Shown here: positions 1,943-18,593 of the stretch, piece by piece
Position numbering within the stretch: position 1 is the stretch's first letter
How the letters are laid out: each line of letters opens with the position of its first letter
Source of the DNA: Bacilli bacterium
GTDB lineage: Bacteria > Bacillota_I > Bacilli_A > RFN20 > CAG-826
Direction of reading: 5' to 3'
Length of the DNA stretch: 64,000 nucleotides
Assembly: GCA_045222195.1 (NCBI GenBank)
Contig: JBGUXN010000029.1
Span: 742 to 64,741, forward strand
Translations under genes and position numbers: made by a program
The notes under the pieces: generated by a model
Database searches by the model: none
The model's input: the letters and a program-made list of their open reading frames with translations, nothing else
Told to the model about the DNA's origin: nothing

Positions 1943-4909
1943 CTATTCTGCTTTTTCTTCCTTATTAGGTTCACTGATAGCTGGTTCATTAGCAGGAACT
2001 TCTTCTTTCTTCTTGAGAGTTTTCAAGATGACGATGAATCCCCAAGCGATTAAGCCCGCACCAAGGACGCCTTCACCGATGAATAATAATTCTTGCCAGA
2101 CTGGAAGTTTGTAGCCAAGAATCTTTTGGTTCATGGCGTTAGAATTGGCTAAAGCATAGAGAATGTTATGGGATGCACGTCTAAGCATGACGACATCTTC
2201 GATTTCGCTAGATTTAGCGGTCTTCCAATAAGCAGTACCGGTGAGGTTTAAGTCACCACCAGCGTAAGCCATTTGTTTGCTATCCATATATGCGTCAGTG
2301 TGGAAGTCACAAATGACGAGACCCTTGAAGCCCCATTCTTCACGGAGAACAGTTGTAAGAAGTGGATAGGAACCACCACACCAACGTTGACCGATACGAG
2401 TGAAGGAACTCATCAAACCTAAGCTCTTGCCTTCTTTAATAGCAATTTCAAATGGTTTGAGGTAGAGTTCACGGACGGCTTGTTCTTTGACCCAGTAAGA
2501 TTGACCGTTATTAGAACGGTGTGTTTCTTGTTCATTAAGGGCAAAGTGTTTAATGGTTGTATAAACGCCTTTAGCTTGTGCTTCTTTAATGACGACAGCG
2601 GCTAATTTACCAGAAATGAATGGGTCTTCTGAATAGTATTCAGTGTTACGACCAGAGAATGGAGAACGGTGTAAGTTGACACCAGGAGAATACCAACCAG
2701 TATATGGTAAGGAGCTACCATTAGCACGTTGATCGCCGAAGACGGCTTCATTACCAATAGCGTTACCTTCTTTACCAGCGAGCTCAACATTGAATGTTTG
2801 AGCCACTAAAGCTTCGGAACAGTAATAGCATGTGCCATACACTTCTGGGGTACCCATGAAGGCGACTAAACCAGTAGGACCATCACATGATAATGTTTTT
2901 GGCACACCTAAACGGCTGAGTTTGGTGGTTGCGTACATACCTTTATTGAAGAGGCTGAGCATTTCATCAAACTTCATTTGATTAAGGAATTCGTCCCATT
3001 TTTCATCATCGTATTCTAAACCGGTCATTTCATCTAAGTGGATGGTCACTCTTTGACCCATCTTTGGTTTGACGGTATATTCATTTGGATTATCAGATGT
3101 TGTCTTAGATAATCTATTGATGAATTTAGAGTTGACGGTGAGGTCTTCTTCGGTTGGCATTTGTGGGAATGTCGCTTCAAAGCCTTGACGAGAGAGATTT
3201 TGATTCAAGAATTGATTCAAGAAACTCATTTCGTCTTTATTGTTTTGATAGAAGACTGGTTCAACTTTAGTGCCGGTCACTGGGTCATTTTCAAATCTAA
3301 CATCAGCGGCGAGATTCTTAGTGAATGAATCGGCATCTGTATGAGCATCTGTACCGAGATAGAAGGAGTAATTACCCGCTTCTAATTCATAACCTTTGAA
3401 TTCGTTTTCGTTAGCGTCTTCAGAGTCGAAACTAGCGAAATCATATGGAGTAACTTTGATATGAAGTGGTTCGGCTGTTGTTTCACCAGCATCTAACATT
3501 GGGGTTTTAGCAAAACCGACAAGCACTTTATAAGCTTTTTCGATTTCACCGGATTCATATGGCGCGGAAGCGTAAACTTGAACGACTTGTTTACCGGCTT
3601 TGCTACCAGTGTTTTTGACTTTCACATCAATGGTGAAATCTTCATCAGCTTTAAGAGCGGCCGCTAAAGCGGACTTATTGACGATTTCTTGTTCGAAGGT
3701 GGTATAGCTTAAGCCATAACCGAATGGATATAAGACATGTTCGTTATACCATGCATCACCACTACCAGTGGAAACTTTTTCCATTTCCGCCCAGCGGGTT
3801 TCATAATAACGATAACCTAAGTAGATACCTTCTTCGTAAGCGACGGAGAAATATGGTTGTAATTCACCATCCACTAAATAGGCATCGCCCATTGTGGAAT
3901 CACTTTCGTTAACGGCATTATCACCAAAGTTTTGCCATGTTGGGTCTTGGTCATAATGGGTATAGACGGTATCGGTTAAGTGACCACTTGGGTTAACAGA
4001 GCCATTAAGGATTCTACCTAAGGCCATGATACCTGTGGCACCTGGGCTACCGATTAAGATAGCAGCGTCAATCTTTGAGTTGTATGCTGGATCGCTAGCA
4101 ATCTTAAGGAAAGCCATATCGATGTTATTAGAACCGTTGAATAAAACGATGACGTGAGCAAAGTCTTGCGCACAGATGTGTTCTAATAACGCTCTTTCGT
4201 TGGTATCTAATTCTAAATAGTGACGTCCGGCGACACCATCAGCGGAAACACGTGGTAAGTCCCAGTTTTCACCAGCGATACGAGAGAAGACCACTAAAGC
4301 GGCATCTTTGTAATCAGCATAGGTGCTAGTAATATCAGTAGTATACTTTTCAACTTCTGTTTCACCAGTTTTTAAAAGTGGAATACCATCACCGTGTTCC
4401 ATTTTTGGGTTGGCGCTGCGGCCACTACCGGAACGGGCATTATCTTCATAGAAGCTCTTAAGAGCTGGGTTACATTGAAAACCAGCTTCATTAAGAGAAT
4501 CATAAATGGTCTTAAGTGGGACGGTTTGTGTTGGAGCAGCAGAACCAGAACCACCATAGACTAAATTGACAGAGTTTTTACCAAAGATAGAAACTTTGGC
4601 GCCGTTAGCTAATGGGAGGGCATTATTTTCGTTCTTTAAAAGAACCATGCCTTCTTCACAAATTTCTTGTGTGACTTTGTTACCATTTTCTAAGGCTTGT
4701 TCTTTGTTTTCAAAGTCAGGGGTAAAATATCTAAACTTAACGTTTGGATCGATAACCGCTCTTTCACCACCGAGAACACCATTAATTAAATCTGGTAAGA
4801 CGGCAGTCGCGACCACGTTAACGGCCACGATAATGAGAACAAGAGCGAGAGTTGTAATACCCCAAGCGAGTACTTTTTTACTTTTTATGAGCTTTTTGAA
4901 CACGTTCAT
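1943..4909 (-). CDS. GH3 beta-glycosidase (beta-glucosidase/xylosidase type), circularly permuted domain order, N- and C-terminal TM anchors
   Basis: 988-aa ORF with RBS GAGGA. Signal-anchor WGITTLALVLIIVAVNVVATAVL. Sandwich-domain motifs come first (MVLLKNENNALPL, VSIFG, YPFGYGLSYTTF at aa 394-405). An Fn3-like module follows (VKVKNTGSKAGKQVVQVY). Barrel motifs come last (NLHRSPFSGRNTEYYSEDP, KHFALNEQE aa 787-795, nucleophile motif WGFKGLVICD868). C-terminal TM GVLGAGLIAWGFIVIL plus a charged tail. Confidence 0.9.
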   Translation of the reverse strand: MNVFKKLIKSKKVLAWGITTLALVLIIVAVNVVATAVLPDLINGVLGGERAVIDPNVKFRYFTPDFENKEQALENGNKVTQEICEEGMVLLKNENNALPLANGAKVSIFGKNSVNLVYGGSGSAAPTQTVPLKTIYDSLNEAGFQCNPALKSFYEDNARSGSGRSANPKMEHGDGIPLLKTGETEVEKYTTDITSTYADYKDAALVVFSRIAGENWDLPRVSADGVAGRHYLELDTNERALLEHICAQDFAHVIVLFNGSNNIDMAFLKIASDPAYNSKIDAAILIGSPGATGIMALGRILNGSVNPSGHLTDTVYTHYDQDPTWQNFGDNAVNESDSTMGDAYLVDGELQPYFSVAYEEGIYLGYRYYETRWAEMEKVSTGSGDAWYNEHVLYPFGYGLSYTTFEQEIVNKSALAAALKADEDFTIDVKVKNTGSKAGKQVVQVYASAPYESGEIEKAYKVLVGFAKTPMLDAGETTAEPLHIKVTPYDFASFDSEDANENEFKGYELEAGNYSFYLGTDAHTDADSFTKNLAADVRFENDPVTGTKVEPVFYQNNKDEMSFLNQFLNQNLSRQGFEATFPQMPTEEDLTVNSKFINRLSKTTSDNPNEYTVKPKMGQRVTIHLDEMTGLEYDDEKWDEFLNQMKFDEMLSLFNKGMYATTKLSRLGVPKTLSCDGPTGLVAFMGTPEVYGTCYYCSEALVAQTFNVELAGKEGNAIGNEAVFGDQRANGSSLPYTGWYSPGVNLHRSPFSGRNTEYYSEDPFISGKLAAVVIKEAQAKGVYTTIKHFALNEQETHRSNNGQSYWVKEQAVRELYLKPFEIAIKEGKSLGLMSSFTRIGQRWCGGSYPLLTTVLREEWGFKGLVICDFHTDAYMDSKQMAYAGGDLNLTGTAYWKTAKSSEIEDVVMLRRASHNILYALANSNAMNQKILGYKLPVWQELLFIGEGVLGAGLIAWGFIVILKTLKKKEEVPANEPAISEPNKEEKAE

Positions 4910-4923
4910 AAGCGATTCCTCAC

Positions 4924-6054
4924 TTATTCGAGTTGAGAAGCTTTGGCGTTAAGCCAAGAAAGTGTTTGTTGTGTTTCAATTGTAATGCAGTCAATCATTG
5001 GCGCTGTAGCAGCGGCTGTACCATATAATAAATCTTCATTGTCTGTGATCATTTCAATGGTATTTTTGCCGGCCACTAATGGGATATTGACGCCTAATTG
5101 ATAATCAGCGAATTCTTTCCAACCTTCACCTTGAAGTGGGACGTTTGTGAAATCGATTTGACCGTAGTCAATATCGTTGCCATTCACTTTGATTGGATAT
5201 TTGGAAACGTTTGTACCACCAGCACAGCTGATAGAGAACGCTTCTTTATATTCAGCGGATAAACGCATATCAATTTTGGCTGTACCAGCAGCATCAGAAT
5301 TGATTTCGAATTTTAAGTTGTTGCCTTTGACATAGAGGAAGTGGACAAAGTAACCATTGGATGCTTTAGCAGCACTATTTTCATCTTCTTGGATTAAGCC
5401 TTTGCCAGCTTGACCACCAGAATATGTCGCACCTTGCATACCGATTGTGCCTTTTGTGATAACATCACAATATTCGGCTTCGAAACGATAAGCTTTTGGA
5501 GAACCAACAGCACCCCATTTAGCATAGAGTGTGGTATCAGCGGTGAAATGACGTGTGAAGTCATAATATTCTTGTTGGGTGTCTTTATCGACAGTCCAAC
5601 CGATGAAAGCATAACCGTCACGCACTGGATCGGCTGGTCTTTCAACCGCTTGTTTTTGAATGACTTTGACCACTGTTGGGGCTGGAGCGCCACTATAGTT
5701 TAAGTCAAATGTGCATTTGAGTTCGGCTAACCAGTGAGCGAAAACCTTTGTGTTCTTTTTGATTGGTTCTTCAAAGTCGAATTCAGAGTCTTTGTCTTGG
5801 TCATCGTGCCAACGGTCGAAGATGTAACCTTCTCTTTCTGGTACTTCTTCTGGTTCATCAACACATTCGCCTTTTTTGACTTTCACTTCTTTGAAGACGT
5901 CTTCCGCACTATTCTTTTTGTAGTTAAGACGGAATGTAACTGTGAGGCCATCGCCACCATTACCACCTTCTTCACCGTTACTGCCACAAGAAGCAAGAGC
6001 GGTTGAGAACATGAAAACGGTTGCGAGAATCAAAGTTTTTGCAATTTTTTTCAT
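4924..6054 (-). CDS. Lipoprotein with two Listeria-Bacteroides (Flg_new) repeats and a C-terminal CBM6/35-like module
   Basis: 376 aa with RBS GAGGT. Lipobox FSTALAS-C. Repeats EREGYIFDRW...KVFAHW and VRDGYAFIGW...TLYAKW. The C-terminal beta-sandwich starts YRFEAEY and ends MIDCITIE. It lies 14 nt upstream of the next GH3, so it is in the same operon. Confidence 0.75.
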   Translation of the reverse strand: MKKIAKTLILATVFMFSTALASCGSNGEEGGNGGDGLTVTFRLNYKKNSAEDVFKEVKVKKGECVDEPEEVPEREGYIFDRWHDDQDKDSEFDFEEPIKKNTKVFAHWLAELKCTFDLNYSGAPAPTVVKVIQKQAVERPADPVRDGYAFIGWTVDKDTQQEYYDFTRHFTADTTLYAKWGAVGSPKAYRFEAEYCDVITKGTIGMQGATYSGGQAGKGLIQEDENSAAKASNGYFVHFLYVKGNNLKFEINSDAAGTAKIDMRLSAEYKEAFSISCAGGTNVSKYPIKVNGNDIDYGQIDFTNVPLQGEGWKEFADYQLGVNIPLVAGKNTIEMITDNEDLLYGTAAATAPMIDCITIETQQTLSWLNAKASQLE

Positions 6055-6175
6055 AATTAATACCTCATTTCTAAAATTACAATGTTGTTTTTAATTTATG
6101 GATAAGGCTCCCACAAGAATAAACCTGTAGGAGCCAAATTCATTTTTTTAGATGGATTTGTTAGTAGTTATCTGA

Positions 6176-9100
6176 CTATTCTTCTTTTTTACGAAGAGCT
6201 TTGACACAAAGCAAGCCAGCAAGAGCAAGACCGACCACTGATGTCATGAGGACAACAGCACCGACTTCGCCGAAGCAGCCTTTCTTCTTGTTTGGTTCAA
6301 CTGGGCTTAAATCGCCAGCTTCGCCATTTTGTGGAAGAATGACTAAGCGAATTGTCTTACCTTTAACGGTACTACCATTTGTGCTTAAGACGTGAATCTT
6401 GATATCGCAATCTTTGGTTGGAACACCACTAATTGTGCTGCCATCAAAGACTAAGCCTTCTGGTAATGGAGTGGCTTCGTCGATTGATAATTCACCGCTA
6501 CCAGCGTAGCTGATTTCGATATTGGCTTCTTCACCAACTCTTAAATCGTATCTTTCATCGGCTTCGATTTCAGCATCAACACCGATTCTAGAATCCATAA
6601 CGCTACTATTAGCGATCATCCACATTTGTTCTCTGACGCTCTTTCTAACAGCGTACCACCAAGAATAGGATGGATATGTATCACCATCATACTTGAAGGT
6701 TGGGCAACCCATTTCTGCATCCCAGGAAGCTTCGATATAGCTACCGAAACCTCTTTGGTCTAAGTTAACGTTCATACCAGAGAGGACTCTGTTATTGACA
6801 TTTTCGTAGCACTTGAAGTTAACGCTACTATTGCCAGAGTGAGTCATATCGGAAAGGACAGTGCCTTGGAAGCCCCATTCTTCACGAGTGACTTCTGTTA
6901 ATAATGGATAGGAAGCAGCTGTTTCCATTAAACCTAAACGGTTGTAGGAAGACATAACACCAACTGAATGACCTTCTTGGAAGACCATTTGGAAGGATTT
7001 TAAGTAAATTTCACGTAAAGCTTGTTCACTAACGAATGTTGAGACACCTTCACGGCCTTTTTCTTGGTCGTTAACGGCGTAGTGTTTGAAGTAGCAGTAG
7101 ACACCTTGTTCAGTGGCTGGGCCAACTGTGCAAGCAGCCATCTTACCCATTAAGAATGGATCAGCGGCGAAGTATTCGAAGTTACGGCCACCGAATGGGG
7201 AACGGTGTGTGTTACAACCACAACCTAACCAACCACCAGTGCCTTCCATACCGATCATATTGCCACGTTCAGTGACTAATTCGAGGTTCCATGTCGCGGC
7301 GACAATTGGTTCACCAGCCCAGAGGATGCCATTCCATTTGTTTGGACCATCAGAGTCTCTGGAACTTGGTTTACCGATGGAGTTCATCGCACCATTAGAG
7401 AAGTTACCATTGGCAACGTACGTTTGCATTTCGGACCATGTGAATTCATTTAAGAATTCAACCCATTTTGGATCATCTTGTGGGATGTTCTTCATTTCGG
7501 AGAGTTGGATACGATTAGCTTGAGATAAGGATGTAGCTTGTTGTGACCAACCTAATTCTTCAATGTCTTCTTTTGATCTATAAGCCGCTTGTGGGACGTA
7601 TTCATATTCGTTATCAACATAATCGCCATCAGCGTTCTTGATTTGTGGGAGATCGAGATCGGCGAGTGTGAATTCGTGTGTTAAGAATTCTTCAACACGG
7701 CTATCGCTTGAAACCATACGATCTTCGATTGTTGGATGTGTTGGGAATGTGCCTTCGAAGTCAGCACGGGACATATGTGTGAATTCGATATCTTCTTCAC
7801 TTGGTAAGGAGTTATAGAAACCTCTATCTGTGAAGCGGTTTTCGACTTTGTGACCTGTGTAACGGTCTGTTTCGTATTGGATACCAGCTTTTTGGACTTC
7901 GAATTTCTTTGTTTCATAGAATTCGTGAGCGTCTTTAGCGAGGATCACTTCATATTCACCACCATCGAGTTCATAACCAGCAAAACCGTTGTTGTTAGCA
8001 TCGGTGTAGTCGTAGTTAGCAACATCTTGGAGGTAGAAACTTAAATTGAGTTCTTGGGATTCACCTGGATCAAGGATGTTTGTCTTGTCAAATGCGCATA
8101 AGACGTGATCAGCTTTTTCAATGCCACCCTTGAAGTATGGGGCTTTCCAATAAATTTGAACGACATCTTTACCAGCTCTATTACCAGTGTTTGTGACTTT
8201 GACTTTCATTTCGATTGTCTTGACTCCTGGGTTAAGGATTGAACCTTCATCATAGTTCATGGAGACGATTTCTTGTTCAAATGTTGTGTAGCTTAAGCCA
8301 TAGCCGAATGGATAGATGACACCAGTGCCATCGTTATTTGTGCCGTTATACCAAGCTTCAGCAGCGGCTTCGTCTTTAAGCTTCATATCTTGATAGACTG
8401 TTTCGTAGTATCTATAGTCGACATAAATGCCTTCTTCATAAGAGACGTAGGAAGCTGGTTTAACACCATTTAAGCCACCTTTAACAATCTTGTATTCTTC
8501 ACCAGTGGCTGTTCCACCTGGGAATTTTGTAATACCGAAGACAGAGCCATCACCTTCCCAACGTGGGGATTGTTTATTGCTATAGTTCTTATCGGTACCA
8601 TAACTTAAGATTGGGACACCATCAGAGTCGAGCATTGTATCGTTTGGTAAATAGACTTTTTCACCATTGATTTCTTGAAGGTTTGTTTGAGCGTTATCCG
8701 CGAAGTTTTGATATGTTGGGTCTAATGTGAAGTCACGGCCCCATGTATCAACTGTTCTACCGGATGGGTTAACTTCACCTTTTAAAATTTCAGGAATAGC
8801 TTTACAGCCATCTTGACCTGGTGTACCGATCCATAAAACGCCTTGGATAGCATCATCTTTTTCGAACTTGTCGCATTGGAAGACGTTACCGGAGTTGACG
8901 ATAACGATGATTTTGTTGAAGCCCGCATCCTTAACCATCTTGAACATATCTTCTTCGTTTTTGGATAATTCGAGATAGTGTCTTGTGGAGAAGCCATCAG
9001 CATCGAAGTCTCTTGCGTCACAAGTCTTTTCGTCAGCACCTTCTGTACCCCAACGAGCGATAACGATAATCGCGGCATCGTGATATTGAGCGAAGGAATC

Positions 9101-9583
9101 TTTGACAGCTTGAGTGTAACTAGATTGTGGAGTTTCACCAACGCAGTTATAACCAGTACTGGAATAGTTACCGGTACTAACTTTTGGACCACTGCCGGAT
9201 TGGCTGCTGCTAGCATAGAAACTTTGAAGTGTGGAGTTGATTTCAAAGCCAGCACTTGTTAAAGCGGATTGCATTGTGGTACCAATGCTACCACCACCAC
9301 CAGAACCACCACCATTTGCGGCCATATCATTACTTGCTTTACCGAAAATGGAGATTTTCTTCACATTCGAATCAAATGGAAGGACGTTGTCTTTATTCTT
9401 TAAAAGAACGAAACCTTCTTCGGCGATTTTGACGTTTAATTCCTTTTCTCTAGTGGAGAGATTGGAAGAATCACCAACGAATTTGTTGAATGGAATAGCC
9501 TGTTTAGCAGTCACGCCACCAGCTTGGCAAGCGGTAAGCATTAAACTACCTAATACGACAGGCCAAATAATTCTTTTTTTCAT
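6176..9583 (-). CDS. GH3 beta-glycosidase lipoprotein, permuted domain order, C-terminal GC-motif/TM/basic tail
   Basis: The track ORF is 6176..9613. I prefer ATG 9583 (MKKRIIWPVVLGSLMLTA-C lipobox, RBS AAAGGAAAA). Motifs: FVLLKNKDNVLPF, ISIFG, YPFGYGLSYTTF, VKVTNTGNRAGKDVVQIY, NTHRSPFGGRNFEYFAADP, KHYAVNDQE, WGFQGTVLSD. An Ig-like module PLPEGLVFDGSTISGVP is present. The protein ends KKKGCFGE-TM-RKKEE. Confidence 0.9.
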   Translation of the reverse strand: MKKRIIWPVVLGSLMLTACQAGGVTAKQAIPFNKFVGDSSNLSTREKELNVKIAEEGFVLLKNKDNVLPFDSNVKKISIFGKASNDMAANGGGSGGGGSIGTTMQSALTSAGFEINSTLQSFYASSSQSGSGPKVSTGNYSSTGYNCVGETPQSSYTQAVKDSFAQYHDAAIIVIARWGTEGADEKTCDARDFDADGFSTRHYLELSKNEEDMFKMVKDAGFNKIIVIVNSGNVFQCDKFEKDDAIQGVLWIGTPGQDGCKAIPEILKGEVNPSGRTVDTWGRDFTLDPTYQNFADNAQTNLQEINGEKVYLPNDTMLDSDGVPILSYGTDKNYSNKQSPRWEGDGSVFGITKFPGGTATGEEYKIVKGGLNGVKPASYVSYEEGIYVDYRYYETVYQDMKLKDEAAAEAWYNGTNNDGTGVIYPFGYGLSYTTFEQEIVSMNYDEGSILNPGVKTIEMKVKVTNTGNRAGKDVVQIYWKAPYFKGGIEKADHVLCAFDKTNILDPGESQELNLSFYLQDVANYDYTDANNNGFAGYELDGGEYEVILAKDAHEFYETKKFEVQKAGIQYETDRYTGHKVENRFTDRGFYNSLPSEEDIEFTHMSRADFEGTFPTHPTIEDRMVSSDSRVEEFLTHEFTLADLDLPQIKNADGDYVDNEYEYVPQAAYRSKEDIEELGWSQQATSLSQANRIQLSEMKNIPQDDPKWVEFLNEFTWSEMQTYVANGNFSNGAMNSIGKPSSRDSDGPNKWNGILWAGEPIVAATWNLELVTERGNMIGMEGTGGWLGCGCNTHRSPFGGRNFEYFAADPFLMGKMAACTVGPATEQGVYCYFKHYAVNDQEKGREGVSTFVSEQALREIYLKSFQMVFQEGHSVGVMSSYNRLGLMETAASYPLLTEVTREEWGFQGTVLSDMTHSGNSSVNFKCYENVNNRVLSGMNVNLDQRGFGSYIEASWDAEMGCPTFKYDGDTYPSYSWWYAVRKSVREQMWMIANSSVMDSRIGVDAEIEADERYDLRVGEEANIEISYAGSGELSIDEATPLPEGLVFDGSTISGVPTKDCDIKIHVLSTNGSTVKGKTIRLVILPQNGEAGDLSPVEPNKKKGCFGEVGAVVLMTSVVGLALAGLLCVKALRKKEE
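6179..6289 (-). other. C-terminal tripartite sorting-signal-like segment (KKKGCFGE / hydrophobic helix / RKKEE)
   Basis: The last 37 aa of the 6176..9583 product are KKKGCFGEVGAVVLMTSVVGLALAGLLCVKALRKKEE. Confidence 0.5.
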
Positions 9584-9791
9584 ACGTATTTTCCTTTCTA
9601 AGTTATCTTGCATAAAGGCTTCGAAACGAACGCCGTAACATAATATAGTAGAAAAATAGAAAGACTATTTGTTCCACAGTAAATGGGAATATGCAAAGTA
9701 TCTTATACATATATTGAAAATTATTTAAATTATAAATAATATGACAATCTTGTGATTTAACATATTTTTTTAAAATATAGATGGAGCGTAA

Positions 9792-9828
9792 AAAAAGGGG
9801 AGGTGCATGAACACAACCCCTAATTTTT
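9792..9828 (-). terminator. Probable terminator after GH3 9849..13241
   Basis: Minus strand AGGGGTTGTG-ttcatg-CACCTCCCCT followed by TTTTTTT. Confidence 0.5.
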
Positions 9829-9848
9829 ATGATTTTAGTTTTACAAAA

Positions 9849-12800
9849 CTAATCTTCTTTTCTCTTGGCTAAGATCACACCAAGTCCCATAACGGCAACA
9901 AGTGCCATTAAGGAAGAAGCAGCAACGATACTACCACCACAACCTTTTTTCTTTGGTTTTTCTGGTTCGATGAGCTCAACTTCTGGTGAGTTAGCAAGAA
10001 CGATGAGTTCAAAGCTTCTACCCACTGTTGCAGTGCTATTATCATCAAACTTCAATTCCACTAAGACGTGGATGAACTTATTGAATGTCGCATCTAAAGA
10101 ACCAGTGATGTGGTTGTTAGCAAAGCTGACACCTTCTGGTAATGGAGTGAATGGGTCAATCTTGACGTTGACTTCTTGGATGTTCTTACCATTATAAGAC
10201 CCACCGACTTTGATTTCGCTTGGTAAGGTGACTTCGACATCGATATCTTCACCCGCTCTCACAGCGTATTGTCCCATTTCATTGACACCAGAGAATTCCA
10301 TACCTTCAAGTGGAGTAATGAAGCTGCTGAGATATTTGCTAGAACGGATGTTCATCCAGATGCATTGTTGTGCCATTTTTCTCACTGCGTACCACCATGA
10401 ATATGATTCATATGTATCGCCTTCGTATTTGAAGGTTGGGCAACCGAGTTCAGCATCCCAAGTAGCATTCATATCACCAGTATAACTAGAACCATCTAAT
10501 TGTTGGTTACAGCCAGCGAGGATACGGTTATTGATGTTTTCATAGCAGTTTCTATTATGCGCACCATTGCTATGGTGAGTCATATCGGAAATGATACTAC
10601 CTTTGAAGCCCCATTCTTCTCTTAAAACTTCAGTTAAGAGTGGGTAGCTAGCAGCGGTTTCCATTAAACCTAAACGGTTATAGGAAGACATGATACCTAA
10701 GGATTTACCTTCTTGAATTGGGAGTTGGAAAGCCTTTAAGTAGATTTCACGTAAAGCTTGTTCACTGAGGTAGGCAGAAACGCCTTCTCTTTCTTTTTCT
10801 TGATCGTTAACAGCGAAGTGTTTGAAGTAACTATAAACACCTCTATCAGAAACACCAGCGACCACTCTACCTGCCATACGGCCAGTTAAGAATGGATCAG
10901 CGGAATAGTATTCGAAGTTACGGCCACCGAATGGAGAACGGTGAATGTTGACGCCTGGGCCAGCCCAGCCTTGTGTGCCTTCGATTTTACCTTCCATACC
11001 AACGCAATCGCCTTGTTGTCTAGCTAATTCAACATTGTATGTTGCGGCAACGATTGGGCCAGAGACCCACCAAATGATTTTGAATCTTTGTGGACCATCG
11101 CTATCGCCAGTTGCTTGTTTACCAAAACGAGAAATTGCTGGGTTATGGTTGCTACCACCGGAGACGAATTGAAGCATTTCGCTATATGTCATTTGATCCA
11201 TGAATTCATCCCATCTTGGATCATCCATGTCTGTATTCATGAGGTCAGTGACTTTGATGTTAACTGTACCATTTGTATTTTCCGCTTGTGTCCAACCTAA
11301 TTCTTCGATATCTTCTTTGGTCTTATGAGCGGCTTCAGGAACGTATTCGAATTCAGAATCTTCACCATCTAAATCGTATAAGGTGAATTCGTGAGTTAAG
11401 AATTCTTCCGCACGGCTATCAGCACCCAAGGTTCTATCTTCAATTGTTGGATGGGTTGGGAAGGTTTCTTCGAAATCTTCACGGCTCATTTGTGTGAATT
11501 CAAAGTCATCATCACTTGGTAAAGAGCTATAGAAACCTCTATCAGTGAAACGGTTTTTAACTTCACCACCAGTGAATCTATCAACAGCGTATTGGAGACC
11601 TTTTTCTTGCACTTTGAAATCGACTGTTTCAATTTCTTCGTGAGCGTTTTTACCTAAAACGAGTTGATAATCACCACCATCGAGTTCATAACCGGCAAAG
11701 CCGTTATTATTGGAATCCATAAAGTCGTAGTTAGCGACATCTTGTAAATAGAATTCTAAAGTGACTTCTTGTTCGTCTTGTGGGTCTAAAATATCAGTTT
11801 TAGCAAAAGCACAGAGAACTTTACTAGCTTTTTCAATGCCACCTTTGATATAAGGAGCGCGGAAATATAATTGGACGACTTCTTTACCGGCGACATTACC
11901 AGTATTTTTAACTTTGACTTTAACTTCAACCTTAGTGTCTGGATTAGAAACAGCTTCTTCTGGAAGATTATTGGAAACGATTTCTTGTTCAAATGTTGTG
12001 TAGCTTAAACCATAACCAAATGGATAAACAACACCGCTTTCGCCTTCGTACCATGCATCAGCGGCATTTTCATCTTCCGCTTTCATGTCGTCGTATTTTG
12101 TTTCGTAATAACGATAATCGTAATAAATACCTTCTTCGTAGCTGACATAGGAGCCTGGTTTAACACCGTTTAAGCCACCTTTAACAACAAAGTTCTTTTC
12201 ATCCGCCCAGTTTGGTTTTTCGTGGTCGGTATAGCTCTTATCAGAACCATAGGACATGACTGGATAACCATCAGCGGTAATCATGGTATTTTGCGCAGCA
12301 AAAACTGGTTTGCCATTAGCATCTTCAGTTAAGTTTGTTTGCGCGTTATCAGCGAAGTTTTGCCATGTTGGATCAAGGGTAAAATCTCTCGCCCATGTAT
12401 CAACTGTATGACCTGATGGGTTGACTTGACCAGAGACAATTCTACCTAAAGCACCTGGACCAACGTCACCTGGGTTACCAATCCAAATAACCGCAGAAAC
12501 TTTTGGATCGTCTTCAAAGACACCACATTCAAAAACGTTACTGGAGTTAATGAGCATAATGATGTGGTCGGTGTGTTTATGTAATTCATCAAATAAAGCT
12601 TGTTCGTTATCGGATAGCTCTAAAGCGTGCTTTTCTGTAAAAGCGGCATTATTGTTATCGCGGCAATCGCATGTCTTAAGGTCGCAACCTTCACTACCTT
12701 CACGAGTGATGAGTTGGAAGATGGCGTCACCATAAGTGGACATGGATTCAAGTTCACTTGAGGAATAAGAACTTAATGGAGTTTCACCAATTGTGACTTG

Positions 12801-13241
12801 GGAAACACCTGTCCAACCAGTGTTGCCATTGGTACGGCCATTCCCTGATCGAGAAGAACTATAGAAGCTCTTAAGTGTCGGGTTAACAGTACAACCAACT
12901 TCTGTTAAAGAGGATTCAAGATCGTAAGCGTATGATCTGACGTTTTGGTGAATACCACCCGCACCAGAACCAGAACCACCTCTTAAAAGATCGTTTGTCG
13001 CTTTGCCTGCGAGGGACACTTTTGCGCCTTCGGTTTTCATTGGAAGGAAGCCGTCATTCTTTAAAAGAACGAAACCTTCATCCGCTAACTGGGCGTTAAC
13101 TTTAACAGCGTGCTTGATGTAGTCAGATTGATTATTGGCTTCGCCAAACATTTCGGCGTTAACAGCGTGCGGGCTTTTAGCAAAGCCTAATGGTAGAGCC
13201 ATCGCGGCAAGAAAAATAGGAATAAGAATTCTTTTCTTCAT
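9849..13241 (-). CDS. GH3 beta-glycosidase, secreted, permuted domain order, C-terminal GC-motif/TM/basic tail (tandem paralogue of 6176..9583)
   Basis: 1130 aa. Signal peptide MKKRILIPIFLAAMALPLGFAKSPHAVNA. Motifs: FVLLKNDGFLPM, YPFGYGLSYTTF, VKVKNTGNVAGKEVVQLY, NIHRSPFGGRNFEYYSADP, KHFAVNDQE, WGFKGSIISD. Ends KKKGCGGS-TM-KRKED. Confidence 0.9.
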   Translation of the reverse strand: MKKRILIPIFLAAMALPLGFAKSPHAVNAEMFGEANNQSDYIKHAVKVNAQLADEGFVLLKNDGFLPMKTEGAKVSLAGKATNDLLRGGSGSGAGGIHQNVRSYAYDLESSLTEVGCTVNPTLKSFYSSSRSGNGRTNGNTGWTGVSQVTIGETPLSSYSSSELESMSTYGDAIFQLITREGSEGCDLKTCDCRDNNNAAFTEKHALELSDNEQALFDELHKHTDHIIMLINSSNVFECGVFEDDPKVSAVIWIGNPGDVGPGALGRIVSGQVNPSGHTVDTWARDFTLDPTWQNFADNAQTNLTEDANGKPVFAAQNTMITADGYPVMSYGSDKSYTDHEKPNWADEKNFVVKGGLNGVKPGSYVSYEEGIYYDYRYYETKYDDMKAEDENAADAWYEGESGVVYPFGYGLSYTTFEQEIVSNNLPEEAVSNPDTKVEVKVKVKNTGNVAGKEVVQLYFRAPYIKGGIEKASKVLCAFAKTDILDPQDEQEVTLEFYLQDVANYDFMDSNNNGFAGYELDGGDYQLVLGKNAHEEIETVDFKVQEKGLQYAVDRFTGGEVKNRFTDRGFYSSLPSDDDFEFTQMSREDFEETFPTHPTIEDRTLGADSRAEEFLTHEFTLYDLDGEDSEFEYVPEAAHKTKEDIEELGWTQAENTNGTVNIKVTDLMNTDMDDPRWDEFMDQMTYSEMLQFVSGGSNHNPAISRFGKQATGDSDGPQRFKIIWWVSGPIVAATYNVELARQQGDCVGMEGKIEGTQGWAGPGVNIHRSPFGGRNFEYYSADPFLTGRMAGRVVAGVSDRGVYSYFKHFAVNDQEKEREGVSAYLSEQALREIYLKAFQLPIQEGKSLGIMSSYNRLGLMETAASYPLLTEVLREEWGFKGSIISDMTHHSNGAHNRNCYENINNRILAGCNQQLDGSSYTGDMNATWDAELGCPTFKYEGDTYESYSWWYAVRKMAQQCIWMNIRSSKYLSSFITPLEGMEFSGVNEMGQYAVRAGEDIDVEVTLPSEIKVGGSYNGKNIQEVNVKIDPFTPLPEGVSFANNHITGSLDATFNKFIHVLVELKFDDNSTATVGRSFELIVLANSPEVELIEPEKPKKKGCGGSIVAASSLMALVAVMGLGVILAKRKED
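9852..9953 (-). other. C-terminal tripartite sorting-signal-like segment (KKKGCGGS / hydrophobic helix / KRKED)
   Basis: The last 34 aa are KKKGCGGSIVAASSLMALVAVMGLGVILAKRKED. Confidence 0.5.
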
Positions 13242-13462: not shown

Positions 13463-13853
13463 GGGGTTGAATAGTTTCGACAGCGATGTGCTTAGCTTTA
13501 GCTGCAGCGGCCGGTAACCTTAAACCAAAACTAAAAATAACTGCCAACAGTTATATGAGAGCTCCTAGAGCTCAATCTCTCTGCTTAGCATAGTTCTACC
13601 CGACATAGGGACCGACCAATAGGGCCGGACAGAGCATCCTCCAAGGTTTTCTCCTTTCACGCTTGGTCAGGGTGTCATACCAAAAGGATAGGGAAAGAGA
13701 GTGGACTTGTTACTCTTACCGAAACTTAGTAAGTCTCGCGTAAACTAGTGAGTCAATATACGACCTTACGTTAAAATCTAAAATATTGTCTAAGCTGTAG
13801 ACGCTTCTGCGGGTAATCGTTGGACGCCGGTGCGATACCGACCAGCTCCACCA
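13463..13853 (+). ncRNA. ssrA: tmRNA (transfer-messenger RNA)
   Basis: The 5' end GGGGTTGAATAGTTTCGAC pairs with the 3' end CAGCTCCACCA, forming the acceptor stem with the G3:U wobble. The tRNA-like 3' end is GGACGCCGGTGCGATACCGACCAGCTCCACCA. The resume context AAAAATAACT-GCC matches the E. coli-type AAAAAUAGUC-GCA context. Length is 391 nt. Confidence 0.92.
13543..13593 (+). other. tmRNA tag reading frame: (A)ANSYMRAPRAQSLCLA-stop
   Basis: GCC AAC AGT TAT ATG AGA GCT CCT AGA GCT CAA TCT CTC TGC TTA GCA TAG, starting 81 nt from the 5' end. Confidence 0.65.
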
Positions 13854-15575: not shown

Positions 15576-18500
15576 CTATTCAGCACTCACAGGTTCGGAG
15601 TTATCATTTTCTCCACCTGCTTTAGCGCCTTTTAATGACATGATTTCGAAGAAGGCATAGACACCGACTAAGATAGCGGCGATACCAGCACTACCGATGA
15701 CAATACCAGTCACGGCTTTCTTCCACCATGGATTTAATTGTTCAGCGATTTCTTCTTCGCTGACTGGGGCGACACCACCCATCCAAGATCTGCTCATCGC
15801 ATACATGATGTATTTGTTGGCTCTTTGTAAATCTTGTAAGAGGGCACCATCGTGTTTACTTGTAATCCAGTCTCTTAATTGGCCACCACGGTTACCGTCT
15901 AAGCAGAATAAGTCGGTACCACTATGGAGCATGGCTGGACCATTGGAGTAGTTAGATGTATTACTACCTGTTAAAGCATCGTCAATAATTTGACCTCTAT
16001 ATTTCCATTCACCTCTCATGACGTTCATCATTAATGGTTCATGACATGCGGCGTATCTAACACCGATTCTGTTATAAGAAGTCATAATACCTAAGCCGTG
16101 GCCTTTAGTTAAAGCGCCTTCGAATGGCTTTAAGTAGATTTCTCTAAGAGCTTGTTCATTACAGAATGTAGCAACACCTTGTCTACCACTTTCTTGGTTA
16201 TTTAAGAAGCAGTGTTTAATATTCATGATTAAACCTTTTCTTCTTGCTTCACCAACAATGTTAGCGGCGACATTGTAATTTAAAATAGCGTCTTCAGACA
16301 TATATTCGGAAGCACGGCTACCATATGGGGTTCTATTAATATTGGCACCTGGAGCGTTAACACAAGCCACACCACAGAATAAAGCGTCTTCACCATAGAA
16401 ACCACCAAATTTCTTTTGCATTTCGTGATCCCATGTACCTGTATATGTTGGGCCAGTTGGGAAACCAGTAGCCCATCTCTTATCACCGTATTGGTATTTG
16501 CTTAATAAGCCTTCTGGACCTTCGGCAACGGAGTTACCTGGTTTCATAACTTTCTTAACAGCTAAGATACCACGGTTATCACTGACGGAGATGACTAAGT
16601 CATTTAAGTTCATTTGAGAAATGAATCTATCCCAAACATCCGCACCATTTTCACCAAAGAATCTGCTATCGGCGTCTTCAACTTTACCATCTAATGGAAC
16701 ATTAGCCATTTCGTTGAAGGTAATCTTGTCATCGCCTAAATCGACGTTATAGACATCACCATCGCCATCTTCATATCTTGGAGCATCGGCAGGAACGTCT
16801 TTATAGTAGTTAGACATATCTCTTTCCGCACTTGGTGCTGGGTTACTTGTTGTAGCGGTTGGCCATGTGGTATCCCAGTGTTGTCTATCTAAGTAAGTGA
16901 TGCCACCGGATTTACCATCATCGTGATTCTTTTCACCGACGAACCAGTTATAATCAGCGTCATCAAATTGGTTGACAACATCAACGCTTGGATCGTAGTG
17001 AGATTTTCTATAGGTAATTGGATCATCGTCAAATTCTAAGGTCTTGACGCAAGCGTCATTACCGATATAGGTTTCACCATTGTGGTCATATAATTGAGCA
17101 CTTGGTTCTTTAACGGAAATGATGTTATTTAAAGCTTCGTGAGCACCATTACCGACAGCAAAATAATATTCGCCACCTTCTAAGATATAGGTTTTATTAA
17201 TCTTGTAGTCGTATGTGGTTAAGAAATATTTATCGAAGGAGAGTTTAACTTTTTCAGTCTTGCCCGCTGCGACATCTTTCTTTTCATATGCCATTAAAGC
17301 AATTGCGGATTTACCTAAACCGTTTTCTTTATCGAAATCAGTATATGGAGCTTGGACATATAATTGTACAGAGGCTTTGCCATCCATCTCACCAACGTTT
17401 TTGACTTCGACTTCCGCTTCGATTGTATCGTTTTCTTTATTTTCCTTTAAGGAAACGATTCTTTGTTCAAAATTGGTATAGCTTAAACCAAAGCCGAATG
17501 GATAACCCATTTCTTCAGCGTAGTTCCAAGAACCACCTGTGGATTTATAAATACCTTTATTGCTATCAGCATTGCCTTGATTGAGGACTAAGTCTTCATA
17601 TCTAGTTTCATAGTATTTATAACCAACATAGACGCCTTCTTTATAGACGACGACTTGGCTGTTACCAAAGTTTTGATAAGCGGCACTGCTGGAAGCAGAA
17701 GCAGCGAATGTATCTGGAGCGTGACCAGAAGCATTGACAACTTTACCTTCGGCATCTTTGCCCATTAAAACGTGAACGATACCACCGGCACCATAATAGC
17801 CAGGAACACCCATATAAACACAGGCGTCAATGCCATATTGTTCATCGTTAACCCAGTCAGTAGACATCGCTAATGGGGAGTTGATTAAGACGATAACCTT
17901 TTTGAATGTACCGTTATCTTTGTACTGTTTAACTAATTTTAAAAGATTAGCTTCGTCATTCTTAAGATCGAGTTGACCGGCACCTGGGTCGGTATTTTCT
18001 GTACCGATACGGACAAATGTAATAATAGCAGCGTCACCATATTCAGCTTTAATTGCGCTTTCTTTGGTTTCACTGTACCTTTCAACATTTGTTCCAGGAG
18101 AAGTCATGCTGCCTTCGTTAGAATAACCATTGAAGAGTTCTCTGTTGATCTCGAAACCATTTGCTTCAAAAGCGGCATCGAGCTTCACAACTAAGTTGTT
18201 GTTTGGCGCAGCACCACCGGCACCAGAACGCATGAATAAGTTCTTGCTACCACGACCTAAGAGGGTGACTTTTCTTTCATTTTCTTTTAATGGAAGGGCG
18301 TCGTTATCGTTTTTAAATAAAACAGAACCTTGTTCGACAGCTTCTTCACAGAATTTGTAAGAATCTTTGATCATCTTTTTCCAACCAGAGTTGGATAAAG
18401 AACCATCTTCTGCTGCGTAGGCTGAACCTTCGACTTCATCGGAATCGATTTTGTCGATTTTTTGTGTGGATAGACCTAAAGCGTCATTGATAAGACCTTC

Positions 18501-18593
18501 ATTAGCGTTGGCGAGTTGTTGGGCTGCTAACACCAATGTCAAAAGGGCCACACCACTAACTGCTAGACCTAACCATAGTTTTGGCTTTGCCAT
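15576..18593 (-). CDS. GH3 beta-glycosidase, permuted domain order, N-terminal signal and C-terminal TM anchor
   Basis: 1005 aa with RBS GAAAGGAA. Motifs: VLFKNDNDALPL, VTLLG, YPFGFGLSYTNF, VEVKNVGEMDGKASVQLY, NINRTPYGSRASEYMSEDA, KHCFLNNQE, WKYRGQIIDD. C-terminal TM VTGIVIGSAGIAAILVGVYAFF. Confidence 0.9.
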   Translation of the reverse strand: MAKPKLWLGLAVSGVALLTLVLAAQQLANANEGLINDALGLSTQKIDKIDSDEVEGSAYAAEDGSLSNSGWKKMIKDSYKFCEEAVEQGSVLFKNDNDALPLKENERKVTLLGRGSKNLFMRSGAGGAAPNNNLVVKLDAAFEANGFEINRELFNGYSNEGSMTSPGTNVERYSETKESAIKAEYGDAAIITFVRIGTENTDPGAGQLDLKNDEANLLKLVKQYKDNGTFKKVIVLINSPLAMSTDWVNDEQYGIDACVYMGVPGYYGAGGIVHVLMGKDAEGKVVNASGHAPDTFAASASSSAAYQNFGNSQVVVYKEGVYVGYKYYETRYEDLVLNQGNADSNKGIYKSTGGSWNYAEEMGYPFGFGLSYTNFEQRIVSLKENKENDTIEAEVEVKNVGEMDGKASVQLYVQAPYTDFDKENGLGKSAIALMAYEKKDVAAGKTEKVKLSFDKYFLTTYDYKINKTYILEGGEYYFAVGNGAHEALNNIISVKEPSAQLYDHNGETYIGNDACVKTLEFDDDPITYRKSHYDPSVDVVNQFDDADYNWFVGEKNHDDGKSGGITYLDRQHWDTTWPTATTSNPAPSAERDMSNYYKDVPADAPRYEDGDGDVYNVDLGDDKITFNEMANVPLDGKVEDADSRFFGENGADVWDRFISQMNLNDLVISVSDNRGILAVKKVMKPGNSVAEGPEGLLSKYQYGDKRWATGFPTGPTYTGTWDHEMQKKFGGFYGEDALFCGVACVNAPGANINRTPYGSRASEYMSEDAILNYNVAANIVGEARRKGLIMNIKHCFLNNQESGRQGVATFCNEQALREIYLKPFEGALTKGHGLGIMTSYNRIGVRYAACHEPLMMNVMRGEWKYRGQIIDDALTGSNTSNYSNGPAMLHSGTDLFCLDGNRGGQLRDWITSKHDGALLQDLQRANKYIMYAMSRSWMGGVAPVSEEEIAEQLNPWWKKAVTGIVIGSAGIAAILVGVYAFFEIMSLKGAKAGGENDNSEPVSAE

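Follow-up and report, generated by a model that had tools for sequence, protein, structure and literature searches.

Two GH3 glycosidase genes with similar C-terminal tails

The window, that is, the whole stretch of DNA analyzed here (64,000 nucleotides), carries a pair of genes for GH3 glycosidases, each of which encodes at its C-terminal end a short Cys-containing signature, a transmembrane (TM) helix, and a basic cluster. The features are as follows.

6176..9613, minus strand: P0001, GH3 glycosidase of 1145 aa (ORF and translation; Pfam Glyco_hydro_3_C, Fn3-like, and Glyco_hydro_3)
6179..6289, minus strand: C-terminal signal of P0001, KKKGC-FGEV, TM helix, and KALRKKEE (translation; tail-profile match, E 1e-17)
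9849..13241, minus strand: P0002, GH3 glycosidase of 1130 aa (ORF and translation; Pfam)
9852..9956, minus strand: C-terminal signal of P0002, PKKKGC-GGSI, TM helix, and KRKED (translation; tail-profile match, E 3.8e-21)

The ORFs and their translations confirmed both genes and their tails at the places named in the original prediction. The boundaries proposed for the P0001 tail (6179-6289) were correct, but the P0002 tail, which had been placed at 9852-9953, comprises 35 residues and thus extends to 9956. P0001 ends in ...NKKKGCFGEVGAVVLMTSVVGLALAGLLCVKALRKKEE, with the Cys codon at 6275-6277, and P0002 in ...PKKKGCGGSIVAASSLMALVAVMGLGVILAKRKED, with the Cys codon at 9939-9941. According to Pfam, the domain order is permuted in both proteins, running from Glyco_hydro_3_C via Fn3-like to Glyco_hydro_3. 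The two proteins had been taken for recent duplicates, a view that is no longer tenable because they are only 51% identical. An N-terminal lipobox had been assigned to one of them; this protein is P0001 (LMLTAC), and the N-terminus of P0002 is an ordinary signal peptide. Two other large proteins of the window, encoded at 1943-4909 and 15576-18593, have a C-terminal TM helix without the G-C motif and with longer acidic tails, as had been noted earlier.

A C-terminal signal on unrelated exported enzymes

The tail follows the pattern [KR][KR]-G-C-x-G-[SD]-[IVL], then a helix of approximately 20 residues, and then a basic cluster of Lys and Arg. We observed strong conservation among 60 tails from many genera: Gly at position -1 and the Cys were found in 100%, Gly at +2 in 91%, Ser at +3 in 71%, and Ile, Val, or Leu at +4 in 98%, with 28-33 residues after the Cys; Gly at mid-helix was seen in 26 of 29 tails. 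A 43-position tail profile retrieved six ORFs of the genome to which the window belongs (G000, 1.45 Mb), with E values from 1e-17 to 3e-21 and no intermediate matches. All six encode exported proteins with an N-terminal signal peptide, and they belong to four unrelated enzyme families: three GH3 glycosidases, an endonuclease I, an S8 subtilase, and a phosphatase (Y_phosphatase3). The dipeptide GC occurs at the right distance from the C-terminal end in 19 of the 1624 ORFs of this genome, six of which have the full signal, and the tail pattern is far beyond chance. The original prediction would have failed if the motif had been limited to the two supposed duplicates, which is excluded by these six proteins.

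The search for further members also reached well beyond this genome, with hundreds of tail-bearing proteins detected in approximately 100 genomes of the order, which is probably the GTDB order RFN20. The observed distribution is patchy, with the tail present in 95 of the 401 genomes and in 20 of 70 genera. A subset of tails sharing KGCGGSI, when used as the search query, matched MAGs. A search of the 45-residue tail region against a collection of 5.8 billion proteins returned a single match, because so short a query cannot reach significance at that database size. The tail satisfies the general definition of the tripartite class: its signature, TM helix, and basic cluster stand at the very end of proteins with an N-terminal signal peptide, and it is present on many unrelated proteins and patchy across genomes. 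It probably serves as a C-terminal sorting signal throughout this lineage of Bacilli, which lack both a cell wall and sortases.

Known sorting signals and sorting enzymes

No NCBIfam sorting-signal model matched the tail. Among 29 tails, none matched the MYXO-CTERM models (TIGR03901/TIGR03382) at E<=10, one matched Synerg-CTERM (E 0.77), none matched JDVT-CTERM or CGP-CTERM, and two each matched PEP_CTERM and PGF_CTERM, at E>0.03. The proposal of a new tripartite Cys-containing signal therefore gained support, both from the additional members and from the lack of a match to a catalogued CTERM model.

The LPXTG anchor model TIGR01167 aligned weakly, and only with the TM and basic parts of the tail. 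This resemblance could be read as a hint that a known enzyme of another class, such as a sortase, rhombosortase, or exosortase/archaeosortase, processes the tail. However, LPXTG tails were not found in G000, and the searches, which covered sortases and rhomboids only, led us to reject both as cognate enzymes: sortase (PF04203) is absent in all tail-positive genomes, and rhomboid (PF01694) is missing throughout the order, being absent in 60 of 61 relatives, with the single match lying below the cut-off. Peptidoglycan for attachment is also missing. None of nine peptidoglycan genes tested (FtsI, MurC-G, MraY, FtsW, and Ddl) was detected in G000 by phmmer with E. coli dcw proteins and positive controls, and RsmH, FtsA, and FtsZ were recovered adjoining one another; a motif scan for Mur enzymes was judged too weak. 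On the basis of these sortase and rhomboid searches, processing by an enzyme of these other classes is extremely improbable.

The gene upstream of the C46 member was considered as a protease candidate and rejected, being an HTH-plus-TM regulator. Clustering of the neighborhoods of 23 tail genes yielded ABC-transporter parts only; a protease was not among them, which shows that the enzyme is not consistently encoded beside tail genes.

A CPBP protease coupled to a second Lgt

Elsewhere in the same genome, two overlapping genes were identified that we term type A and type L.

C28:72384-73154 of G000: type A, CPBP/Rce1-like protein of 256 aa (PF02517 match)
C28:73141-73965 of G000: type L, Lgt paralogue of 274 aa (PF01790 match)

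The stop codon of type A overlaps the start of type L by 14 nt, which indicates translational coupling, and opposite-strand genes flank the pair. In every examined locus with flanks, A and L adjoin, with the gene order running either way; in G053, L lacks an adjacent A. Type A matched PF02517 with 56 bits (cut-off 22.4), and its motifs EExxxR, FxxxH, and HxxxD are kept in 47 of 47 sequences, the residues E122, E123, R127, F156, H160, and H204 being conserved in 97-100% of these. It fell below every cut-off of the named myxosortase models (MrtX/C/P/J/S/A), with MrtJ the best at 18.4 bits versus 75. The CPBP family as a whole is uninformative because, at the Pfam family level, it is present in 58 of 61 genomes; the candidate enzyme was resolved only by a clade split together with adjacency to L, the 47 L-adjoining CPBPs forming one clade among 126.

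Type L is a short, divergent protein with the signature GRIGCFxAGCCYG. It matched PF01790 (LGT family) with 105 bits over positions 2-239 of 240 and remained below the Lgt equivalog cut-offs (TIGR00544, 68 bits versus 118.9; NF000778, 118 versus 334). A single L sequence had no match in the PDB, and a profile of L sequences was needed to find E. coli Lgt (5AZB; E 9e-17). In this alignment, Y26, R143, G154, and R239 are kept, whereas H103 is replaced by Leu or Ile and both N146 and E151 by Cys; the Lgt catalytic signature GRxGNFxNxExxG with H103 is thus not present in type L. Because the three replaced residues matter in E. coli Lgt, a different chemistry, or even inactivity, is possible. Canonical Lgt, with the motif GRWGNFFNCEVHG, is encoded by a separate gene in every genome, and G000 has approximately 87 candidate N-terminal lipoproteins. 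L-like Lgts scoring 230-300 bits also occur in another family (f16) with neither a CPBP neighbor nor tails, so that high similarity to L is insufficient by itself.

The CPBP protease might act alone, cleaving or shedding the tail without prior lipidation, with L serving N-terminal lipoproteins or another substrate. The intact catalytic motifs of type A, the missing N146 and E151 in L, and the many candidate N-terminal lipoproteins would all fit this explanation; however, canonical Lgt is already available in every genome, and L is essentially restricted to tail genomes and coupled to A, apart from G053. Moreover, Rce1-type enzymes act following Cys lipidation (10.1101/2023.06.07.544157), and the invariant Cys with its small -1 residue is lipobox-like. 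We regard action of the protease alone as quite unlikely.

Co-occurrence of the tail and the pair

Among 401 genomes of the order, the tail and L occurred together in 88, the tail only in 7, L only in 11, and neither in 295. Eight of the 11 genomes with L only hold GC tails slightly below the cut-off, and counting these gives 96, 7, 3, and 295, respectively; in two of the seven tail-only genomes, fragments of L were found at the ends of contigs. The pair was detected without a tail in one genome of the order (G273) and in two outside it (G444 and G674). Presence and absence of tail and pair were concordant inside the genera g27, g28, g38, g43, and g45, and across four families, and the distance between the pair and tail-bearing genes is often 4-25 kb. 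The co-occurrence has a Fisher p-value of 5e-67, which ignores shared ancestry; a proxy tree of 54 genomes provided only 3-5 independent contrasts, all concordant, and this result is not significant on its own. A CPBP-type protease was among the co-occurring processing enzymes suggested originally, and a specific CPBP clade, coupled to a second Lgt, was indeed found to co-occur with the tail.

The CPBP protein LnsB acts in N-terminal lipoprotein acylation in S. aureus (PMC7387801). By this precedent, the A-L pair could be a variant N-terminal lipoprotein modification system, comparable to LnsA/LnsB, whose association with the tail reflects shared ancestry only, and the phylogeny-aware contrasts are too few for significance. 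A general lipoprotein pathway, however, is not expected to show a comparable association, and the concordance within five genera and the physical proximity to tail genes in many genomes also argue against this explanation, which is very unlikely.

The tail may also be a permanent, unprocessed membrane anchor, with the Gly-Cys used for a disulfide, metal binding, or interface packing, and with A and L acting on other substrates. A TM helix with a basic tail suffices for anchoring, other proteins of the window carry C-terminal helices without G-C, and in a few tail-positive genomes the pair was not detected (G036, 95% complete with 9 tails; G005, 95% complete; G213; and G415). On the other hand, G-C-x-G-[SD]-[IVL] and the post-Cys length are conserved on unrelated proteins, tail and pair share gain and loss within several genera, and the layout matches that of Myxococcus signals for which cleavage has been demonstrated (PMC11980579). 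Although it cannot be dismissed, a permanent anchor seems unlikely to us.

Comparison with known systems

Tripartite signals of the Cys type are cleaved by CPBP proteases known as "myxosortases" (bioRxiv 10.1101/2023.06.07.544157), and processing by MrtX has been shown experimentally (PMC11980579). The same study stated that the cognate acyltransferase "remains unidentified" and named Lgt as the leading candidate (PMC11980579). The signal described here shares with MYXO-CTERM/MrtX of Myxococcota (also MrtC and MrtP) the arrangement of an invariant Gly-Cys, a TM helix, and a basic cluster on many unrelated exported proteins, a CPBP/Rce1-like partner protease, and the proposed order of Cys lipidation before cleavage. 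It differs in having a single Cys (KKGCxGS[IV]) and a Lys tail in place of a GCGC-type signature with an Arg tail; in its host, a monoderm, wall-less relative of Bacillus without a T2SS step; and in its protease, a separate CPBP clade without an Mrt model match. Here the protease has a coupled Lgt paralogue as its partner, whereas the transferase is unidentified in Myxococcus. Synerg-, JDVT-, and CGP-CTERM are likewise Cys tripartite signals with predicted CPBP cleavage, the protease gene sometimes adjoining the client gene, but they occur in other lineages and no Lgt partner has been described for them.

The N-terminal lipoprotein pathway (Lgt followed by LspA) likewise depends on a member of the Lgt family and on an invariant Cys with a small residue (here Gly) at -1; in that pathway, too, the Cys is lipidated before an intramembrane protease takes off the neighboring membrane helix, a sequence of events that is only inferred in our case. 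When the tail is read in the direction away from the helix, its I-S-G-x-C may be viewed as a mirror image of the lipobox L-S-G-C. In contrast to that pathway, the helix lies C-terminal to the Cys, the protease is CPBP rather than LspA, and, in the Lgt paralogue, N146 and E151 are exchanged for Cys and H103 is lost. The reversed topology of the substrate relative to a normal lipoprotein signal peptide was counted against the proposal.

In eukaryotic and archaeal CAAX processing, a near-C-terminal Cys is lipidated and an Rce1-family glutamic protease removes the rest; processing here would be extracytoplasmic and would remove a TM segment of 28-33 residues instead of three residues, and the presumed lipid donor is a glycerophospholipid via Lgt instead of a prenyl diphosphate. 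The clients of LPXTG/sortase A in Gram-positive bacteria are similar (S8 cell-envelope proteases, glycosidases, and nucleases), as are the TM helix and basic tail, but G000 has no LPXTG motif, sortase, or peptidoglycan. GlyGly-CTERM/rhombosortase and PGF-CTERM/archaeosortase A also swap a C-terminal helix for a lipid anchor; their motifs differ, and a single enzyme carries out the chemistry, which takes place at the newly formed C-terminus and not on the side chain of a Cys.

Proposed mechanism

We propose that Sec exports a tail protein, which initially remains anchored in the membrane through its C-terminal helix, with the Cys at the outer face. Type L would then transfer a diacylglyceryl group to the thiol of this Cys, and type A would cut just past the lipidated Cys, removing the helix and basic tail. 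The enzyme would finally be kept at the cell surface by a C-terminal lipid, in P0001 in addition to its N-terminal lipid. We estimate the probability of this proposal as a whole, a lineage-wide signal whose Cys is lipidated by L before A removes the helix to leave a C-terminal lipid anchor, at roughly 0.6. The existence and coupling of the pair, its catalytic motifs, and its co-occurrence with the tail are observed, as are the signal itself, with its conservation and spread, and the lack of genes for sortase, rhomboid, and peptidoglycan synthesis in the searches above; enzyme action, order of steps, lipid, and cleavage site are inferred, without biochemical evidence. The earlier reading of the tail as a signal that has its own cognate machinery is accordingly supported, and cleavage and lipidation remain inferences.

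Significance

As mentioned above, the transferase for Cys-type signals "remains unidentified", and the Lgt paralogue is therefore a dedicated, testable candidate. A second Lgt that is coupled to a cognate-type protease, in the same genomes as the signal, provides a concrete two-gene handle on the missing lipid-adding enzyme. The tail and the A-L pair together suggest an undescribed, mirror-image form of lipoprotein anchoring. In a more far-reaching inference, to which we give an even chance, the GRIGCFxAGCCYG paralogue is a dedicated C-terminal Cys lipid transferase that forms, with the Rce1-type protease, a complete "retro-lipoprotein" pathway mirroring Lgt/LspA. It would then put a gene to the enzyme class that has been postulated, without ever being identified, for MYXO-CTERM and other Cys-type signals, and the pathway would be the main display route for polysaccharide-degrading enzymes of wall-less gut and rumen Bacilli.

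The hosts are abundant, uncultured, wall-less Bacilli of the rumen and gut, for which "reduced surface protein expression" was predicted because they lack sortases (PMC10868615). The presence of the tail on GH3 glycosidases, a cell-envelope protease, a nuclease, and a phosphatase points to a possible route by which these bacteria hold degradative enzymes at their surface. Profiles of the tail, type A, and type L would allow pipelines to recognize hundreds of surface proteins whose current annotation is that of ordinary membrane proteins.

C-Terminal Tails of GH3 Enzymes and Other Exported Proteins

The window corresponds to contig C29:742-64741 of genome G000. Two GH3 genes lie in tandem in it, and both encoded enzymes have a permuted domain order.

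Window 6176-9613, minus strand: P0001, GH3 gene, in tandem with P0002
Window 9849-13241, minus strand: P0002, GH3 gene, in tandem with P0001

The C-terminal ends of the two proteins, ...NKKKGCFGEVGAVVLMTSVVGLALAGLLCVKALRKKEE in P0001 and ...PKKKGCGGSIVAASSLMALVAVMGLGVILAKRKED in P0002, share a tail composed of the signature [KR][KR]-G-C-x-G-[SD]-[IVL], a transmembrane (TM) helix and a basic cluster, which the original prediction had regarded as a candidate new sorting signal. The position assigned to the first tail was right, whereas the second had to be corrected to 35 residues at 9852-9956. P0001 and P0002 are 51% identical and hence are old paralogues; the N-terminus of P0001 carries a lipobox, and that of P0002 an ordinary signal peptide. 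A tmRNA gene (window 13463-13853, plus strand; Rfam RF00023, 94 bits) is located just upstream of the GH3 pair.

As had been predicted, other large proteins of the window possess a C-terminal TM helix without Gly-Cys. Two of them (window 1943-4909 and 15576-18593, both minus strand) have an N-terminal signal-anchor, a C-terminal TM helix lacking Gly-Cys and long, acidic cytoplasmic tails, and these endings are a second, distinct C-terminal anchoring style at the same locus.

The signal is not confined to the pair from which it was proposed: a scan of all ORFs of the source genome, G000 (1.45 Mb, 61 contigs, 37% G+C), revealed the tail on six proteins, four of them in addition to the two GH3 enzymes.

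Further G000 proteins with the tail (by contig)
C28:34243-38583, minus strand: third GH3 enzyme, with collagen-like repeats
C28:120868-122667: endonuclease I
C44:13753-17550: S8 subtilase with PA and fn3_5 domains
C46:30453-32234: Y_phosphatase3 protein

An N-terminal signal peptide is present in all six proteins and a lipobox in three, and the linker before the tail is typically Pro/Glu/Ser-rich or collagen-like. In the third GH3 enzyme, the tail is immediately preceded by collagen-like G-x-y repeats that extend over about 100 residues, a combination also seen in the relatives L002, L009, L043 and L044. XRE-type HTH paralogues with C-terminal membrane segments are encoded at C46:29758-30360 and C47:1510-2124 (both plus strand); the former gene precedes the tail-bearing phosphatase gene, with a gap of 57 nt if translation of the phosphatase begins at an in-frame ATG at 30417, or of 93 nt if it begins at 30453.

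Tail Signature and Distribution

Motif frequencies were obtained from 60 distinct tails of many genomes.

Residue frequencies by tail position
-3: Lys, 66%
-2: Lys, 61%
-1: Gly, 100%
0: Cys, 100%
+2: Gly, 91%
+3: Ser, 71%
+4: Ile/Val/Leu, 98%

In the same 60 tails, the Cys is separated from the first dibasic pair by 21-28 residues and followed by 28-33 residues in total; a mid-helix Gly occurs in 26 of 29 aligned tails. In the direction away from the helix, the residues of the tail run I-S-G-x-C, an order that we infer to resemble a mirror-image lipobox (lipoboxes in G000 include ISGC and LTGC). NCBIfam release 20 contains no model for this tail: the MYXO-CTERM, JDVT-CTERM and CGP-CTERM models gave no match, the Synerg-CTERM model matched 1 of 29 tails (E 0.77), and the LPXTG anchor model aligned weakly, via its TM and basic part only.

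Among congeners, a profile of the tail matched 21 of 22 genomes; it also matched some other genera within the family and, outside this family, one genome, both of whose congeners were negative. Among 401 genomes drawn from the order, the profile detected the tail in 95, belonging to 20 of 70 genera. Searching the GTDB species genomes for the exact pattern retrieved 'Bacilli bacterium' MAGs from rumen and horse faeces, as well as 'Candidatus Enteromonas sp.', 'Erysipelotrichaceae bacterium', 'Anaeroplasma sp.' and 'Bacillales bacterium UBA7642', names that we take to be consistent with GTDB order RFN20.

A CPBP Protease Gene Paired with an Lgt Paralogue

The CPBP family (PF02517) was found in 58 of 61 relatives, and its presence is therefore not discriminating at the family level. 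Among the genes extracted from these relatives, however, one CPBP type, the Rce1-like type A, always directly adjoins a short, divergent Lgt-family gene, type L.

The A-L pair in G000
C28:72384-73154: type A, CPBP protease gene
C28:73141-73965: type L, Lgt-family gene

In G000 there is a 14-nt overlap between the stop codon of A and the start of L, and the genes flanking the pair on both sides are on the opposite strand; across genomes, A-L is seen in both gene orders and is divergently transcribed in one genus. The CPBP catalytic motifs E122-E123-x-x-F-R127, F156-x-x-x-H160 and H204-x-x-x-D are retained in 47 of 47 type A sequences. When 126 CPBP proteins were placed in a tree, a single branch (SH-like support 89) split the 47 L-adjacent ones from all others; L-adjacency required one change versus 38 expected with shuffled labels.

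The match of L to PF01790 is full-length (105 bits), but L falls far under the Lgt equivalog cut-offs; E. coli Lgt 5AZB could be aligned with an L-sequence profile (E 9e-17). In this alignment, Tyr26, Arg143, Gly154 and Arg239 of the E. coli enzyme are retained, whereas His103 is replaced by Leu/Ile, and Cys stands in place of both Asn146 and Glu151; the resulting signature is GRIGCFxAGCCYG. These active-site replacements could reflect reversed substrate topology or different chemistry.

The pair might instead act in N-terminal lipoprotein modification, a role held by a CPBP protein of S. aureus, LnsB (PMC7387801). A canonical Lgt, with GRWGNFFNCEVHG, is found in nearly all relatives; in G000 its gene is a separate long ORF at C42:4157-5740 (plus strand). 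In this family, such ORFs comprise 450-530 aa, roughly double a typical Lgt, and include additional membrane segments at both the N- and the C-terminus. Some tail-negative genomes have short Lgt paralogues of yet another, third class, scoring 92-186 bits against the L profile; among them are the relatives G039, G078, G128, G227, G249, G348, G351 and G388.

Co-Occurrence of the Tail and the Gene Pair

The original prediction had raised the possibility of a co-occurring processing enzyme, and the tail largely co-occurs with the CPBP-L pair in the 61 relatives and with L in the 401 genomes. Among the 61 relatives, a second, short Lgt was found in 24 of 27 tail-positive genomes, and A-L in 0 of 34 tail-negative ones. 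With a cut-off of at least 220 bits, which a gap separates from other paralogues (186 bits or less), L-type matches occurred in 99 of the 401 genomes. The initial cross-table comprised 88 genomes with both, 7 with the tail only, 11 with L only and 295 with neither. Eight of the 11 'L only' genomes proved to have sub-cut-off GC tails (AGCFGSI, AGCRGSI, SGCFGSI, KKGCGGSV, RGCAGSI), located 9-10 kb from the A-L pair in genus g43; in another, L is a pseudogene. In two of the 7 'tail only' genomes, parts of L lie where a contig breaks off. The corrected counts were 96, 7, 3 and 295, respectively.

Presence or absence of tail and pair was concordant within genera g27, g28, g38, g43 and g45. A-L is positioned 4-25 kb from tail-bearing genes in many genomes, and about 5 kb from orthologues of the window's two GH3 genes in most G000 congeners. 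The Fisher p-value of the co-occurrence is inflated by shared ancestry: a 54-genome proxy tree offered only 3-5 independent contrasts, all concordant and not significant alone.

Several exceptions remain in the order. No pair was detected in G005 or in G036 (9 tails, 95% complete), G273 has A-L with no detected tail, and G053 has L without A. G036 (JAZRYE01, 'Bacilli bacterium'), whose nine tails are canonical KKGCGGSI, is the main unexplained case. Beyond the order, the evidence is mixed: family f31 has A-L together with large proteins ending in GCK[SA]S, a helix and KKKK (G552), and two genomes, G444 and G674, have the pair with no tail detected. L-like Lgts of family f16 (230-300 bits), which lack both a CPBP neighbour and tails, may simply be ordinary Lgt; in some lineages, L-like genes commonly have no protease next to them. 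In G486 (L273, G486:C1 9739-13174), an 850-aa exported protein ending in AGCAALFNVSN, a TM helix and KRKY is encoded directly upstream of an L-like gene without a CPBP neighbour; this arrangement may represent a variant form of Cys-tail system from a different order.

Cell Envelope and Other Sorting Enzymes

A sorting enzyme of another class could also act on the tail. However, no sortase was found in any tail-positive genome and no rhomboid in the order (61 relatives searched), which excludes these two classes; exosortase was outside the search. G000 has no LPXTG-type tails. Among its congeners, G059 does have a sortase.

In a search of G000 with the dcw-cluster proteins of E. coli, rsmH, ftsA and ftsZ were found side by side (C33, about 5650-9462, minus strand), whereas FtsI, MurC, MurD, MurE, MurF, MurG, MraY, FtsW and Ddl had no match. 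This dcw cluster remnant clearly marks the loss of peptidoglycan, and on these grounds the organism is very probably wall-less. The inference agrees with a report in which RFN20 families CAG-826 and CAG-288 were predicted to be wall-less and were also noted to lack sortases (PMC10868615).

Proposed Mechanism and Implications

A published prediction is that cognate CPBP proteases cleave Cys-type tripartite signals once the Cys has been lipidated (bioRxiv 10.1101/2023.06.07.544157). For Myxococcus MrtX, cleavage was experimentally demonstrated to need conserved Cys residues, and the acyltransferase "remains unidentified", with Lgt the leading candidate (PMC11980579). The arrangement of A-L and tail fits this MrtX-type model and adds a dedicated transferase gene, although no step has been observed directly. 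In such a scheme, the tail protein would be exported by Sec, with the C-terminal helix serving as a transient anchor; L would transfer diacylglyceryl to the tail Cys (a candidate peptide substrate, without assay data, is EKPKKKGCGGSIVAA); and A would then cleave after this Cys, leaving a surface enzyme with a C-terminal lipid anchor. Alternatively, the tail may be a permanent anchor that is never processed, or may be cleaved without lipidation.

A full-text literature search identified no paper on this tail signal, nor on a CPBP-coupled Lgt paralogue for C-terminal signals. The general kind of system, in which a CPBP sorting protease serves Cys-type C-terminal signals, is known; the signature and the host group are new. 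Within the A-L pair, L is a candidate for the as yet unidentified enzyme that lipidates such signals.
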